Below are positions 20,730 to 26,450 of a DNA stretch of 26,634 nt, piece after piece (the stretch's first letter is position 1; every line of letters starts with the position of its first letter). Under the pieces are notes generated by a model. It was not told the DNA's origin, ran no database searches, and was given only the letters and a program-made list of their open reading frames with translations. The stretch lies in the IMG/VR virus record IMGVR_UViG_638341087_000020, positions 1 through 26,634 of that record. One strand, written 5' to 3'. The position numbers and the translations under genes are program-made. Source of the stretch: a virus (lineage: Duplodnaviria; Heunggongvirae; Uroviricota; Caudoviricetes).

Positions 20730-21220
20730 GATTCGATGATTTTCAGAAACGGGTTAGTGGCTTTCTTCTGCCCCGCCAGGCCAATCAGACGCTGGCGGCT
20801 GCTGGGGTCGAGTCCGAGCATTGCCCCCGTGCTGCTCATCTCGGACTCCTGTTCTTTCTTGGCGGTCAGCTCCGGATTTTTGACCATGCCACCCATTGCA
20901 CCGGTGATGGTGTTGCCCTGTCTGGCAATATTTTTCACGGCACGCCGCCAGAACTCGTAGGCCACGCACCACCGCTCAAGCACCGCGAGGTCAGTCACGC
21001 ACAGCAGGCCCTGACCGCAGAGTTCTTTGGTTGTCAGTTGCCACATGATCGTGGCGAGAGGGAGATCTTCTTCAGCGAACCACTCCGGTGGCTCAACACC
21101 TTTGATGGGCGTAAAAACAGGTTCATCTTTATTCAGGGCTCGCTTGCCGGGGTTTCCGGCCAGCGCCTTGCGCGCCGTTGGCTTGGGGCGACGCCCGGAA
21201 CGCCCCGCCGTTCCAGCCAT
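20726..21220 (-). CDS. Terminase small subunit (P27-family-like)
   Basis: Frame trimmed to the ATG at 21220 ([14 protein letters not shown]..), which has AGGAG 8 nt upstream. Basic N-terminus; immediately upstream of TerL. Confidence 0.7.
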
Positions 21221-21696: not shown

Positions 21697-21837
21697 TGTA
21701 AGATTCTCTTCGGTAGTGTATATGCAATAAACAAATGACCTGTATGAGATCTCATTCTGGATAGATAATGAGTGACCATCACAAACCTAAGGTTGTAAAT
21801 GTTACTTTGAAATCAACTTAAAATTGGTGGACATCAA

Positions 21838-22233
21838 ATGAGTAAAGACAAAAATGCACCTTCTCTGCCCTCTACAGGGATTTATATTGAAAAGGGTTTT
21901 GGAAATCAGCTTTCTAACATAACATCGGTAGGATATGACGTAGGCATTCGCTTCGATGAAGCTTACAATAATAAGTTTTCTTCAGTTCAAGTTATCAGCT
22001 TAGACGCGCTAACTGTGTTAGAACAAACTAAAATTCAATTATTAAACTTGAACATTGATGAAAAATTAAAAAATGAAATTAATAACAAACTTGACGAAAT
22101 TAAAACGGCTCCATCTAAAGAGAGCGCCTCAAACTCATACATTAAATTAATGTCATCACTATCAGATCATGTCACTGTTCTTACGCCACTCTGGCCGCAT
22201 TTATGTACATTAGCTGGTAGCCTCATTGCGTAA
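21838..22233 (+). CDS. Hypothetical protein; opposite-strand AT-rich moron
   Basis: 131-aa ORF on the plus strand inside an otherwise minus-strand late operon. Visibly AT-rich with GGTGGA upstream of the ATG; no recognisable motif. Confidence 0.5.
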   Translation: MSKDKNAPSLPSTGIYIEKGFGNQLSNITSVGYDVGIRFDEAYNNKFSSVQVISLDALTVLEQTKIQLLNLNIDEKLKNEINNKLDEIKTAPSKESASNSYIKLMSSLSDHVTVLTPLWPHLCTLAGSLIA

Positions 22234-22524
22234 CATTATCGCAGGTACTCGGTGAATGCCTGCTGTAATGCCTGCCACACTCTCGCAGTGGCCGCGCTCA
22301 TGCCCTTGAGACCATGTGTCAGGGGTATCTCGTGAATCCCTCACCACTAACCGAAAGCTGACCGGCGATCAACCTGGGGCACCAGCGCGCTTCTTCCCGT
22401 TAACCCTCACCAGCGCGCTATCAGCTTTTTACCTGAAACTGGCTACCAGCAACTTTGGGTATTCGGGGCAGCGTAATTACTGCTGCATTGGCACTACTTG
22501 CCGCGGTCTTTCCGCTTTACAGCT

Positions 22525-22782
22525 TTATGGCCAGCTCCTCTCTGCCTCAATTTTATGAATATCAGCTTTATCCCTATTACAGGCAGCCAGAGCCGACAAC
22601 AGACTCACATTCAAATCCAAGCTTCCACCGTAGGTCAATGGATCAGGAATAACCGGTTGAGGGGTTTCAGCGGTTAGGTTCGCCGGTAGTGGTACCGCCG
22701 GAACTGGCTCGTAAACTGTCCGCGTACTTCCGCAACCGGTCAGCAGCGGTAGCAGGCACAGGACGTGAAGCGCAATCATCAT
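22525..22782 (-). CDS. Rz1: o-spanin (Rz1-like outer-membrane lipoprotein)
   Basis: Start set at internal ATG ATG (22782). Signal peptide MMIALHVLCLLPLLTG followed by lipobox Cys, then a proline-rich mature region. Begins in the +1 frame inside Rz and extends past its stop. Confidence 0.65.
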   Translation of the reverse strand: MMIALHVLCLLPLLTGCGSTRTVYEPVPAVPLPANLTAETPQPVIPDPLTYGGSLDLNVSLLSALAACNRDKADIHKIEAERSWP

Positions 22783-23522: not shown

Positions 23523-23858
23523 TTACTCCTTAGAGCCACCAAACTTGTTACCGATTACTCTCATTGCAGCCCCACGAATAGCATCGACACCGATCAACCC
23601 AACGCCACCACCAATGGCAACAGAAAGCGATTTAGGCCATCCGACATACTCAAGAGCGGATGCAAAAGTCAGCGTCAGAGCGCCGCAGAGCAAAATCTCG
23701 AGCGTTTTTCGCTTCCAGCCACCACCACCGCCAAAATAGGCGATGCGCAAACCAGCCATAACGATCGACATAATCACTGCACCCAGCGGTGTGTCTCCAC
23801 GCCACCAGCTCTGAAACAACTCCAGCCAGTCCGGCCAGGTATTTGGGTTATGAGGCAT
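23523..23858 (-). CDS. Holin (three predicted transmembrane helices)
   Basis: Start set at the first ATG (23858; MPHNPNTW..); the longer ORF-track frame begins with GTG and overlaps a terminator hairpin. Three hydrophobic segments; immediately upstream of the endolysin gene. Confidence 0.6.
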   Translation of the reverse strand: MPHNPNTWPDWLELFQSWWRGDTPLGAVIMSIVMAGLRIAYFGGGGGWKRKTLEILLCGALTLTFASALEYVGWPKSLSVAIGGGVGLIGVDAIRGAAMRVIGNKFGGSKE

Positions 23859-23903
23859 TTCGTCATCTCTCACCTCGCGATATTTGCGGGTGCTGTGTTG
23901 GAA

Positions 23904-23927
23904 ATAAAAAGGCCACGCAACGTGGCC
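23904..23927 (-). terminator. Candidate intrinsic terminator just upstream of the holin gene
   Basis: On the minus strand a 7-bp stem (GGCCACG/CGTGGCC), 3-nt loop, then TTTTTAT, about 45 nt upstream of the holin ATG. Confidence 0.45.
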
Positions 23928-23934
23928 ACCAGAA

Positions 23935-24309
23935 TTATTTCCCCACCAGTTCACTTACCTCTTTCACCGTCTGATTAAACCGCTCTGACTCAAGTTCAAC
24001 ACCTAACGCCCGACGCCCCAGCGCCATTGCTGCTTTTATTGTGGAACCTGATCCCATAAAGAAATCAGCAACCAGATCACCTGGTCGACTACTGGCATTG
24101 ATTATTTGCCGGAGCATATCCGCCGGTTTCTCGCACGGATGTTTACCCGGGTAGAACTGAACGGGCTTATGCGTCCTGACATCGGTATAAGGCACGGAGA
24201 CTGATACGGAGAAATAGCGCCGGAGAGATTTAAACTCATCCAGCAATTCAGAAGATTTGCAATTCAGTGAATCATGAGATACCACCAACTGGTGGTAGGA
24301 TTGTCTCAA
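23935..24309 (-). pseudogene. 5'-truncated DNA methyltransferase remnant (beta-class N6-adenine/N4-cytosine type)
   Basis: Open frame with no ATG until residue about 64, opening right after an in-frame TAG. Carries the ..HPCEKP.. and FFMGSGST (SAM-binding F-x-G-x-G) motifs but lacks the catalytic (D/S)PPY region normally N-terminal in this class. The AT-rich insert starts where the N-terminus should be. Confidence 0.6.
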
Positions 24310-24483
24310 CTAGTGAGCTTTATACATTTAAGTGCGATGCACAGATAATAACCACGCCAATGGAATATCACACACAAAATTGATAGAACACTAACAATAA
24401 GCCATGAAATAATTCACGATTTATTTTTACAATGGATAAGTAGCAAAGTAGTGAATGTGAATAACGGCTAACTAAGATGAAAC

Positions 24484-24510
24484 AAAAAGCCCCACAATCT
24501 GTGGGGCTCC
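24484..24510 (-). terminator. Candidate intrinsic terminator downstream of the small Gns-like gene
   Basis: On the minus strand an 8-bp stem (AGCCCCAC/GTGGGGCT), 5-nt loop, then TTTTTGTTT. Confidence 0.5.
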
Positions 24511-24566
24511 TTCGCGACTTATAGTAAAATAATCGATTCTCTAGCTGAAAAAATCTTTAAAAATTA

Positions 24567-24752
24567 TCAGCAATACGCAAGTTTTTTACCGTCATCCGGT
24601 ACTAGTTTGATCACTACACCAGGATTCTTACGCTCTAACATCTGAGTTTGACTCCATGTAATACCAAAGGTTTCCATTGGAGATGCATTGCCAGCAAAGA
24701 GTTCGGCGACGACTTTAGCTGCCTCAATCTCTATCTGCTCATGATGTTTCAT
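24567..24752 (-). CDS. Small protein (61 aa), possibly GnsA/GnsB-like
   Basis: Start set at the ATG with AAGGGGA 6 nt upstream (MKHHEQIEIEAAKVVAELFAG..VVIKLVPDDGKKLAYC). Length and helix-then-strand pattern recall the Gns family from remembered sequence only. Confidence 0.45.
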   Translation of the reverse strand: MKHHEQIEIEAAKVVAELFAGNASPMETFGITWSQTQMLERKNPGVVIKLVPDDGKKLAYC

Positions 24753-24943
24753 AAAAATCCCCTTGTTCAGCACTAAGCTGTAGTTGCTTCTTTGAAGCAT
24801 AAAGGCAACAAAGTTTGTTACCTGAAGATGTATAAAGTAAAGCGTAGTACATTTTGTGTGTGCTTTGTGTGGATCCAGATTGCATCAACTAAAAGAGGTT
24901 TTCAATACTTTTGTAATGATTCTGGAGAAATTAAGAATCTAAC

Positions 24944-25486
24944 TCACACTGATTGGTTAGGTAAAACACTCCTAAGCACCATTGCGCAACCACCTCGTTC
25001 GTAATCAGCAATGTACTCAAAACCACTTTCAGTATAGTATCTTATTGCCCCATCAACTGGACTAACTAAAGCTATCGAATCAATAGATTCACCCTGAAGG
25101 TTCAGAAATCGTGCATATGCAGAGAAGCAATCCAAAACGATACCAAGCATCTGATGGTCTAGGTCTTCATGTGCATCATTACGTTTTTCCATCCAGCAAA
25201 TATGCACCGCATTTTTCGGCTTACAGTAACACCCAAATGCAAATCCAATAGGCTCCCCACGATAATAAACAACTAGTTTTATCGGGTGTTCTTCCATCAT
25301 ATCCATAAACACTCGCGACTTTAGTCCGGGATCCCACCGCAGTTTATTGTTCGCCTTGAGGAACTCCATATCTTTTAGTACCAGCTCGTCGGCATATACG
25401 AGCCCTAACGACTTATGAGGGAAGCGCCCTTTTAAATACTCTGCAACATTTTTAAATACTGCTGTTTGGAAGGCTTGAAACATCAT
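24944..25486 (-). CDS. Hypothetical protein, possibly GNAT-fold (acyl-CoA N-acyltransferase-like)
   Basis: 180-aa ORF in AT-rich DNA between the Q-like gene and the lysis cassette. C-terminal ..PVDGAIRYYTESGFEYI.. resembles the GNAT motif-B signature; the upstream Q-x-x-G-x-V segment is only a weak motif-A match. Weak RBS. Confidence 0.45.
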   Translation of the reverse strand: MMFQAFQTAVFKNVAEYLKGRFPHKSLGLVYADELVLKDMEFLKANNKLRWDPGLKSRVFMDMMEEHPIKLVVYYRGEPIGFAFGCYCKPKNAVHICWMEKRNDAHEDLDHQMLGIVLDCFSAYARFLNLQGESIDSIALVSPVDGAIRYYTESGFEYIADYERGGCAMVLRSVLPNQSV

Positions 25487-25562
25487 GTCGATCCAGACGA
25501 GACGAAAGTTTAAATTCTACCTACTCGCCGAATACCATTTCAATGCCACACATCTAAAATTC

Positions 25563-25600
25563 CGAAAAAAAACCCGCACATCAGCGGGTTTTCTACTTTT
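25563..25600. terminator. Intrinsic terminator hairpin flanked by A- and T-tracts (candidate tR'-like late terminator; potentially bidirectional)
   Basis: AAAAAAAA-ACCCGC-ACATCA-GCGGGT-TTTCTACTTTTT on the plus strand. On the minus strand the hairpin is followed by TTTTTTTT, about 100 nt downstream of the Q-like stop. Confidence 0.5.
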
Positions 25601-25637
25601 TATTAAAGCCGGACACACAATGCCCATCATTGAGAAA

Positions 25638-25666
25638 ACATTATCCATTTTTTTTGAAAAATGCAA
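25638..25666 (-). promoter_or_regulatory. Candidate late promoter (pR'-like) downstream of the Q-like gene
   Basis: Minus strand TTGCAT, 17-nt spacer, TAATGT (alternatively TGgATAAT), between the Q-like stop and the terminator hairpin. Weak match, placed mainly by position. Confidence 0.25.
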
Positions 25667-25697
25667 GCATCATGTCGCCATTTTCGTCGAAAATCAT

Positions 25698-26450
25698 TCA
25701 TCTCGTCACTTTCCTCAATTGTGTCTCAGCATACGCTTCTTCCTGCCAGCACTTTGTAACCAGTTTATCAATGACATTTGCATATCCTTTGTACCACTGA
25801 TAATCAGTCAGGTCCGGTACCAGCTTCTGGACATGATGCCGCGCCAGTGTTGTTGGTAAACGACTAAACCGTTTTCCATTGCAACGCCCACAAATCTTAT
25901 AAACAGGTGTGCCATGAAGCCGGGTCCTTTTTTCATCCAGGACAATACCTTTACCCTTACACCCTCTGCACGCTGTGCTGACTTCTCCCTTACCATGACA
26001 ATGCTGACATAGTTCCTTCACCCACTCTTCCTTGATAACAGATTCCCCGCTTCTGGAGTGCTTCACCACTTCGCGCAATACATTCTGAAATCCAGTACCA
26101 GCACAATGCTCACAGCGAGCCTTACTTGCCGCAGACCTGGAATAATCAGCAAAGGCAAAATTCACAAGGTAAGGGATGATCTGTAACCGGATTTCTTCAC
26201 TCAATTTGTTCAATGTCGGGTTATCCAGTGCCATCGCGTAATTGAGCAGACCTTCAATCGCAAACTGAGGATCCTGAACGCCAACTTTTGCCAGGAATAA
26301 GGCAAACCCAAGCGGTGCTTTCGACTGCACCATCCCCTGTGCAGCCATCACATCCGTAATCGTTAAACCACCTGAGCCTGTCGCCGGTGCGTCATCACTC
26401 AATTTTGGAGATTTTGGGGAGTAATATTTTGGTAAGGCTTCAAAGTTCAT
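25698..26450 (-). CDS. Late antiterminator Q-like protein candidate (zinc-finger protein, about 250-aa Q class)
   Basis: 250-aa ORF with GGAG 7 nt upstream. Four CxxCxGxG/R zinc-finger-like repeats (CEHCAGTG, CQHCHGKG, CRGCKGKG, CGRCNGKR). Located immediately upstream of a promoter/terminator pair and the lysis cassette, where lambdoid phages carry Q. Confidence 0.5.
   Translation of the reverse strand: MNFEALPKYYSPKSPKLSDDAPATGSGGLTITDVMAAQGMVQSKAPLGFALFLAKVGVQDPQFAIEGLLNYAMALDNPTLNKLSEEIRLQIIPYLVNFAFADYSRSAASKARCEHCAGTGFQNVLREVVKHSRSGESVIKEEWVKELCQHCHGKGEVSTACRGCKGKGIVLDEKRTRLHGTPVYKICGRCNGKRFSRLPTTLARHHVQKLVPDLTDYQWYKGYANVIDKLVTKCWQEEAYAETQLRKVTR

Follow-up and report, generated by a model that had tools for sequence, protein, structure and literature searches.

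The window, that is, the whole stretch of 26,634 nucleotides analysed here, raises the question of what an open reading frame (ORF) of 124 codons plus a stop (positions 23935 to 24309, minus strand) represents and how it came to lie between AT-rich DNA and the lysis genes. The initial annotation took it for the C-terminal half of a beta-class DNA methyltransferase. The profile of the N6_N4_Mtase family (PF01555 in Pfam) does match the ORF with 79.9 bits (cut-off 26.7), and only profile positions 156-220 of 221 are covered. "C-terminal" is correct, therefore, but "half" is not, as the ORF corresponds to just 124 of the 350 residues (35%) of an intact prophage methyltransferase. When this 350-aa protein was compared with the whole window by tblastn, residues 227-350 were matched at 93.5% identity (E 1.5e-73) and nothing else appeared at E <1; residues 1-226 have no match anywhere in the window. 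The alignment to the full-length enzyme that the annotation proposed thus places the onset of homology at residue 227 and the break at about codon 227.

Both motifs named in the annotation are present. HPCEKP (24124..24141, minus strand; residues 57-62 of the ORF) is the conserved HPxxKP that lies N-terminal to motif I in PF01555 enzymes, and it aligns with the HPTQKP of a solved beta-class methyltransferase. FFMGSGST (24040..24063, minus strand; residues 83-90) is the AdoMet-binding motif I (FxGxG). The (D/S)PPY catalytic motif IV is absent from the 23935-24309 ORF, as had also been stated. Of the features expected of a functional beta-class methyltransferase, the ORF has the profile match and the HPxxKP and FxGxG motifs and lacks both motif IV and a complete polypeptide preceded by a ribosome binding site.

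The edges of the ORF are equally informative. As the annotation described, the frame opens directly after a stop codon, TAG at 24312-24310 (minus strand), at the border of the AT-rich DNA; the GC content is 0.48 in the ORF versus 0.33 in the adjoining 174 nt and 0.39 across the AT-rich cassette as a whole. The claim that the frame has no start codon is right in that there is no ATG or GTG with a ribosome binding site, but the first codon, TTG, is a formally permitted start. We consider this TTG fortuitous, and there is no Shine-Dalgarno sequence in AAAGCTCACTAG, the sequence 5' of it. At the other end, the frame closes with TAA at 23937-23935 (minus strand).

A hairpin, GGCCACG-TTG-CGTGGCC at 23927->23911, begins 7 nt past this TAA and is followed by TTTTTATTT. 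The complete intrinsic-terminator-like element (hairpin plus TTTTTATTTC; 23901..23927, minus strand) has a 7-bp stem with 6 GC pairs and a 3-nt loop. By folding, the hairpin with its T-tract (UUUUUAUUU) gives -19.1 kcal/mol (z -2.9); it has the sequence of a terminator and is predicted to act as one. The element is conserved behind the intact methyltransferase genes of two other prophage loci (L005 and L006) and belongs to the original 3' end of that gene. The first lysis gene, encoding a lambda-family holin (PF05106; 23523..23858, minus strand), has its ATG at 23858, 42 nt beyond the T-tract; this start agrees with the PGAP call, which is a 336-nt coding sequence in homologous loci. The holin gene is followed by a GH24 lysozyme gene and then an Rz-like gene. 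The order of stop codon, hairpin with T-tract and holin is therefore the one originally reported.

The annotation also predicted that a methyltransferase gene once lay upstream of the lysis genes, and comparison with prophages that keep the gene bears this out. The comparator, L005, is a prophage in Escherichia coli CP8-3_Sichuan (NZ_CP053736), and it has an intact 350-aa methyltransferase (WP_000799659.1) with TDPPY at residues 33-37. Its gene order is KilA-N, DUF968, Q, a tR'-like terminator, a 67-aa gene, the methyltransferase, a terminator, the lambda-family holin, GH24 lysozyme, HNH and P27-type terminase; the intact gene is thus located between Q and the same holin. Window positions 26634-25567 correspond to L005 1267-2333 with 95% identity, and window positions 24304-22592 correspond to L005 3493-5205 with 94% identity. 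Between these flanks, window 25566-24305 (1262 bp) stands for L005 2334-3492 (1159 bp), a stretch that contains the 67-aa gene (phrog_331) and the first 683 nt, or about 227 codons, of the methyltransferase gene. The annotation had the gene "decapitated" by an AT-rich insert; the 5' part was indeed displaced by foreign DNA, but the event was a replacement (1159 bp out and 1262 bp in, with the 67-aa gene lost as well) and not a pure insertion. A survey of 5426 complete E. coli genomes found the intact gene, with >=80% coverage, in 1158 of them and the truncated, cassette-linked form in 98, i.e., the intact arrangement is about 12 times more common.

Comparison of the intact protein with solved beta-class enzymes (M.RsrI, M.MboIIA, CcrM and others) aligns two stretches, residues ~9-114, which is the catalytic half, and ~281-340, which holds HPxxKP and FxGxG. 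Only the second of these is retained in the window. The feature is the 3' 35% of a methyltransferase gene, the 5' 65% having been exchanged for other DNA. Relatives (L005 and L006) that have an intact orthologue in the corresponding context, together with disabling lesions among the truncated copies, are what is expected of a pseudogene. A nearly identical locus is found in E. coli O157:H7 and other E. coli, and in these strains PGAP labels the gene [quoted passage not shown]. This is a mosaic-junction pseudogene in a lambdoid prophage of the textbook type, already known in the sense that automated annotation has flagged it. The literature has general mentions of a methylase between Q and stx, and we found no paper on this particular remnant.

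We are highly confident that the ORF no longer functions and is the 3' remainder of an orphan beta-class DNA methyltransferase gene, the front of which was replaced by a foreign AT-rich moron. The ancestral lambdoid late operon would have had a cargo slot with the order Q, pR', tR', 67-aa gene, methyltransferase, terminator and holin, and the intact enzyme was presumably an orphan methyltransferase expressed late from its position between tR' and the lysis genes. The self-contained moron, which comprises a GNAT-fold gene and a 61-aa gene together with a promoter-like site and a terminator, was probably brought in by a single recombination event. On the left, the crossover would have been at the T-tract of tR', and the right one, presumably illegitimate, inside the methyltransferase gene near codon 227. 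This swap would have removed the catalytic DPPY half and the target-recognition region. With the catalytic half gone and no start preceded by a ribosome binding site, the remnant should be unable to methylate DNA. After Q-mediated antitermination, it is probably transcribed and nothing more, within the lysis-gene leader RNA. The retained terminator, together with that of the cassette, probably prevents cassette transcripts from extending into the holin gene in the lysogen. Later, the remnant would have drifted neutrally and served as a patch of homology for exchange of the cassette between prophages with different lysis modules.

The replacing cassette (24305..25566, minus strand; 1262 bp, GC 0.39) displaced the 67-aa gene and methyltransferase codons 1-227. 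It has a sigma-70-like promoter (25514..25543, minus strand; TTGAAA-18-TAGAAT, 10/12 matches), which is a pattern match only, and two genes. The first (24944..25486, minus strand) encodes a 180-aa protein of phrog_11949, and the second (24567..24752, minus strand), which is always paired with it, a 61-aa protein of phrog_11292. A predicted terminator (24484..24512, minus strand) with a 13-pair stem and T5 (-20.5 kcal/mol, z -4.0) follows, and the cassette also includes the 174-nt spacer of 33% GC. The two proteins have no match in Pfam, NCBIfam or PADLOC, and PHROGs places them in families of unknown function only. An AlphaFold model of the 180-aa protein, built from 27 homologues, has a pLDDT of 87 and a pTM of 0.85, and the top 50 Foldseek matches of this model in the PDB are essentially all GNAT-superfamily acetyltransferases or GNAT domains. 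On the strength of this model, the protein has a GNAT fold, although inspection by eye did not reveal the customary Q/RxxGxG/A motif behind strand 93-101.

Where, then, did the joints form? The left junction falls exactly at the end of the T-tract of a tR'-like hairpin (25592->25569 followed by T8; the whole element is at 25561..25592, minus strand), 105 nt downstream of the late-gene antiterminator Q (25698..26450, minus strand; 250 aa, PF03589, annotated as an antitermination protein). Because its stem is conserved in L005, this hairpin fits a tR'-type terminator. By eye, a candidate promoter, TTGCAT-17-TAATGT, is located about 45 nt upstream of it. The right junction zone (24296..24309, minus strand), which is where homology to the intact alleles sets in, includes the TTG after the TAG at 24310-24312. 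In 10-nt bins, identity to the intact alleles rises from 3-5/10 through 7/10 to 9-10/10 between 24309 and 24296, and megablast and blastn place the boundary at L005 3501 or 3493. All 17 copies that were read at the base level, which include four E. coli complete-genome or phage records and 12 IMG/VR contigs, have an identical junction, and the genomes that span the junction region at >=80% coverage are the same 98 that carry the cassette. Since the cassette is also >=99.3% identical in those 98 genomes, the cassette-remnant junction would appear to have a single origin.

Just inside the right junction is a degenerate palindrome, CCACCAGTTGGTGG (24282..24295, minus strand). The intact alleles of L005, L006 and L009 read CCACCAGCTGGTGG here, a perfect 14-bp palindrome that contains the E. 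coli Chi sequence GCTGGTGG on both strands. RecBCD digests DNA inward from a double-strand end until it meets Chi; it then cuts 4-6 nt to the 3' side of this site and leaves what lies beyond intact. As a refinement of the main explanation, one could imagine that RecBCD resected the methyltransferase gene up to this palindromic double Chi and that the end was then joined illegitimately to the cassette, so that Chi set the truncation point. The palindrome is the only Chi pair in the L005 gene and lies 1-9 nt 3' of the homology boundary. Furthermore, an independent fusion of a replication-protein N-terminus to the methyltransferase C-terminus (P0006/L009, from three samples) breaks at L005 3494, <=8 nt from the window junction. 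However, the observation was made post hoc, and Chi is dense in late regions, with nine sites per 7.4 kb of L005. The window has no GCTGGTGG at the breakpoint, where its two strands read GTTGGTGG and ACTGGTGG; all of the remnants likewise have CCACCAGTTGGTGG rather than Chi, and the parent allele may never have been Chi-bearing. The methyltransferase gene is also broken at many other places (aa 193, 207, 251, 255, 266, 274-281 and 316), and a junction at nearly the same codon occurs in a divergent allele type whose one full-length example examined (L003) has no Chi there. We therefore regard the Chi refinement as doubtful, if attractive.

A broader version is slightly less probable still. It holds that RecBCD halting at a bidirectional Chi fixed the stump boundary and made it a recurrent breakpoint (two independent junctions <=8 nt apart), that the retained 370 bp plus terminator serve as a portable homology arm by which the moron passes between lambdoid prophages that differ in their lysis cassettes, and that Chi-ended stumps are a general device in the shaping of module boundaries in prophage mosaics. 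Two related ideas were discarded. A cluster of C-to-T changes cannot be explained by deamination of a RecBCD 3' tail, as the bottom-strand Chi predicts G-to-A on the coding strand and C-to-T is observed. An apparent cluster of breakpoints at aa 225-228 in a list of proteins was unreliable, because several of the ORFs are frameshift products or have alignments that start where divergent alleles become alignable.

The sequences of the remnants themselves display a peculiar pattern. Five that were compared (the window, L001, L002, L007 and L012) have eight substitutions in common, at nt 5, 7, 8, 17, 24, 29, 44 and 51 (position 1 being window 24304), and none in the remaining 319 nt. Such a placement has a chance probability of about 1e-7, or 2e-5 when the first three positions are left out. 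The 3' part of the remnant is L005-like in the window and in the O157 type and L006-like in five other copies (L007, L012, L022, L026 and L028); these five are joined to lysis genes of the essD/rrrD type and not to a lambda-type holin. The simplest reading is that the first ~50 nt stay linked to the cassette and preserve the original, unsampled allele, while the rest has been swapped with intact alleles by homologous recombination. If the stump is exchanged in this manner, it would also be the homology arm by which the cassette moves between prophages. The alternative for the remnant-specific 5' patch is a local burst of mutation at the joint. No intact parent allele with the 51-nt opening specific to the remnants came to light: the 12 IMG/VR matches to the patch are all cassette-linked, and two exact-pattern scans of GTDB representative genomes gave zero matches.

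The initial annotation used the stump to date the AT-rich DNA as a later acquisition. This is supported on grounds of parsimony, rather than proven, by the lower GC content of the cassette, its near invariance and its occurrence elsewhere without the remnant. Copies of the methyltransferase remnant that could be aligned are 95.2-98.4% identical to each other, and one (MLI105) shares about 92% identity with the intact allele of L005. Because the cassette is nearly invariant (>=99.3%) while the adjoining remnant varies, it fits a recent arrival that spread by recombination. Cronobacter malonaticus (L017) and a metagenomic enterobacterial prophage (L013) also have the cassette gene pair behind Q, with 70-74% nucleotide identity, and neither of these has the methyltransferase remnant. 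By the definitions of morons that we applied (PMC8065619, PMC3594210), the cassette has a deviant GC content (0.39, and 0.33 in the spacer, versus 0.52 in the whole window) and a presence/absence polymorphism at one slot (98 genomes with the cassette and 1158 with the methyltransferase at >=80% coverage), with copies behind Q in other genera as well. Its promoter-like site and T-tract hairpin are supported by pattern and folding evidence only. Taken this way, the AT-rich segment looks like the newcomer.

The order of events could also be reversed, i.e., the cassette was the resident cargo and the lysis module came later and brought a piece of the methyltransferase gene with it, in which case the remnant would not date the cassette. 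The Cronobacter-like and metagenomic prophages, with the cassette directly behind a related Q and 70% homology that extends from within Q through both cassette genes, would suit this order, and so would the finding that the 3' part of the remnant has demonstrably been exchanged together with differing lysis modules. However, the E. coli flanks on both sides (Q-tR' on one, the methyltransferase 3' end and holin on the other) are 94-95% identical to those of prophages with the intact gene, and the cassette alone is both compositionally foreign and almost invariant (>=99.3%). The excess of the intact arrangement (1158 versus 98 genomes) also argues against it. Therefore, we consider the reversed order improbable; moreover, the same single illegitimate joint made the truncation either way, so that the difference is mostly one of viewpoint.

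Less probable still is that the 124-codon ORF encodes a working small protein in its own right, made by initiation at the TTG or at an internal ATG, which might, for example, bind AdoMet as a separate module, serve as a regulator or act as a dominant-negative partner of other methyltransferases. Both the window copy and the L007-type copies have an open frame, motif I is intact, and PHROGs has a 181-aa "C-terminal half" family, phrog_6952. However, the TTG directly follows a TAG and has no Shine-Dalgarno sequence, and the 17 remnant copies, which represent five alleles, include badly damaged ones. The most common allele, found in 10 of the 17 (O157:H7 and phage vB_EcoM-689R6), has a stop at codon 105, S87F in the FxGxG motif (giving FFMGFGST) and L29H. 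In the L020 copy, the loss of 1 nt causes a frameshift at codon 16, and the L012 copy has N71S and P76Q. The window allele has only W45R, at a Trp that is kept in Aeromonas phage phiO18P and in the alleles examined from E. coli and from an Stx2c phage. Solved beta-class enzymes have the counterparts of the two sequence halves within a single polypeptide. A natural family of about 124 aa, which would have undermined the annotation, does not exist among the database homologues: the short ones are contig-end partials, frameshifted ORFs or fusions, with many fusion ORFs among them.

With these lesions, no catalytic half and no proper start, the remnant has the pattern of a decaying pseudogene. Some comparisons of remnants with intact alleles gave dN/dS <1 (0.08-0.5), and this would largely be divergence inherited from intact alleles through recombination. 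We did not accept dN/dS over 124 codons as evidence of selection, as there are too few differences and recombination with intact alleles confounds them. Still, a residual peptide may be made from the window copy, because its 124-codon frame is open, motif I is intact, the TTG is formally a start and some of the dN/dS values are <1.

An artefact of sequencing or assembly, in which a frameshift or misjoin conceals a full-length gene, has only the abrupt change of composition at the junction in its favour and is scarcely credible, since the same junction occurs in four E. coli complete-genome or phage records and 12 IMG/VR contigs, 98 complete genomes span the region, none of the complete genomes or phage records read across the junction has the 5' part of the gene, and no frame of the 1.26 kb upstream resembles the missing 226 residues.

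Taken alone, the remnant has little weight; it is a common scar of mosaic prophage evolution that the annotation read correctly, and the NCBI pipeline already labels the truncated methyltransferase. Its value is that it marks the cassette of GNAT-fold and 61-aa genes as a recently spread moron of the cargo slot between Q and holin. This is the slot that holds stx (and tRNAs) in Stx phages, and the cassette is present in O157:H7 and in about 2% of complete E. coli genomes. The mark that the intact enzyme leaves on DNA is expected to be missing from lysogens of this prophage, a point to consider when methylomes are interpreted. The Chi-flanked break and mosaic 3' stump also provide a small, testable case of how homologous and illegitimate recombination together set module boundaries. 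The only points with a claim to mild novelty, and a tentative one, are the double-Chi palindrome at the break and the use of the stump as a recombination handle.

Several known systems resemble this locus. The prophage that encodes WP_000799659.1 is the closest, with the last 124 residues of its methyltransferase 93.5% identical, the same downstream terminator, holin, GH24 lysozyme, HNH and P27-type terminase, and the same upstream DUF968-Q-tR'; it differs in that the window is without residues 1-226 (the TDPPY motif IV and the central region) and the 67-aa phrog_331 gene and has the GNAT cassette instead. In Stx phages, a methylase is variably present between Q and stx (PMC3491183 Fig. 5; PMC8456039). 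For example, Stx2c phages have an intact 352-aa methyltransferase between Q and the tRNA/stx genes, and Stx2a phage 933W has only the last 35 codons (AF125520 20966-21070) of a gene of the same family, with about 70% amino acid identity. The 933W stump, like that in the window, is in the slot downstream of Q/pR'/tR', is truncated at the 5' end and keeps its 3' end beside the next module. However, its break is at codon ~316 versus ~227, the displacing DNA is different, and the next module consists of tRNAs and stx rather than holin. Unlike this Stx-phage version of the slot, the whole window has no RNA families (Rfam at gathering thresholds) or tRNAs (ARAGORN). PHROGs has fragment families for the methyltransferase as well, i.e., the N-terminal half as phrog_6025, the C-terminal half as phrog_6952 and the last 50 residues as phrog_14488. 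Truncation is thus recurrent at this gene, as seen in 933W, in the PHROGs fragment families and in the fusion ORFs.

The cassette resembles the lambda bor/lom and stx morons in its deviant composition, promoter-like site, terminator, late-region position and presence/absence polymorphism, but it replaced resident cargo and left a gene stump rather than simply adding DNA. With respect to the enzyme, the HPxxKP and FxGxG segment of the remnant aligns with the C-terminal AdoMet-binding part of M.RsrI (1eg2/1nw5), M.MboIIA and CcrM; in those enzymes the catalytic (D/S)PPY half precedes this segment, whereas the remnant has none. The intact phage enzyme differs from all three by an extra insertion of ~165 residues (~115-280) between the conserved halves. 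Finally, the met gene of Aeromonas phage phiO18P encodes a 358-aa protein that is 55% identical over the remnant and is likewise located among the lysis genes, between holin and muramidase, but this gene is not truncated, and the phage is P2-like and has another gene order.

The intact alleles of the methyltransferase gene contain a perfect 14-bp palindrome, CCACCAGCTGGTGG, which is Chi on both strands and lies right where the remnant in the window is truncated. The site is at 24282-24295 on the minus strand, which corresponds to 3502-3515 in L005, a syntenic E. coli prophage with an intact gene. An independent fusion of a replication gene to the methyltransferase gene, at locus L009, is broken no more than 8 nt from the same point. 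All eight of the substitutions common to every remnant copy compared fall in the first 51 nt past the junction (24254-24304, minus strand), and none of this kind is present in the remaining 319 nt of the stump. Beyond the patch, the stump is a mosaic of two intact-allele types, and different lysis cassettes are linked to this mosaic part.

Fragments of this gene are common, so much so that they have PHROG families of their own (6025, 6952 and 14488 are seeded by them). For example, Stx2a phage 933W (L008, AF125520) has an unannotated remnant of the same methyltransferase, consisting of only the last 35 codons (20966-21070), with a terminator on one side and the tRNA promoter pT on the other. 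In numerous other cases the C-terminus is fused in frame to the N-terminus of an unrelated phage protein, namely a replication HTH protein, RusA or a Cro/YdaS-like protein; the set of fusions and deletions (P0003, P0005, P0006, P0106, P0114 and P0117) also includes a protein that has lost an internal segment at a short NQW/SQW repeat. Assembly of archived reads may have produced some of the fusions as chimeras.

Between the late antiterminator gene Q and the stump lies an AT-rich, two-gene moron (24305-25566, minus strand). Besides a promoter-like TTGAAA-18-TAGAAT and a strong terminator, it has genes for a 180-aa predicted GNAT-fold protein and for a protein of 61 aa. Pfam, NCBIfam and PADLOC gave no match for the 180-aa protein, and the usual Q/RxxGxG/A CoA-binding motif was not evident by eye past strand 93-101. 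The 61-aa protein is always paired with it, and the two may act in defence or in the manner of a toxin and antitoxin. The gene pair is also present behind Q in Cronobacter and in one enterobacterial prophage from a metagenome. Proteus and Pragia have homologues of the 180-aa protein itself.

Downstream of Q (25561-25700, minus strand), a promoter-like TTGCAT-17-TAATGT was found by eye at about 25665 to 25637, and a terminator hairpin with T8 follows some 45 nt further on; therefore, a short, constitutive pR'-tR' RNA of roughly 65 nt would result. Rfam has no match for this region. The predicted RNA would be an analogue of the lambda 6S RNA and of the StxS sRNA (PMC7547250).

A second AT-rich island (21700-22600, GC 0.37) separates the Rz-like gene from the HNH gene and has the same position and orientation as bor in lambda and iss in the O157 prophage. 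Its 131-aa ORF (21838-22233, plus strand) has no family match, and of 5426 complete E. coli genomes only two contain the island in full.
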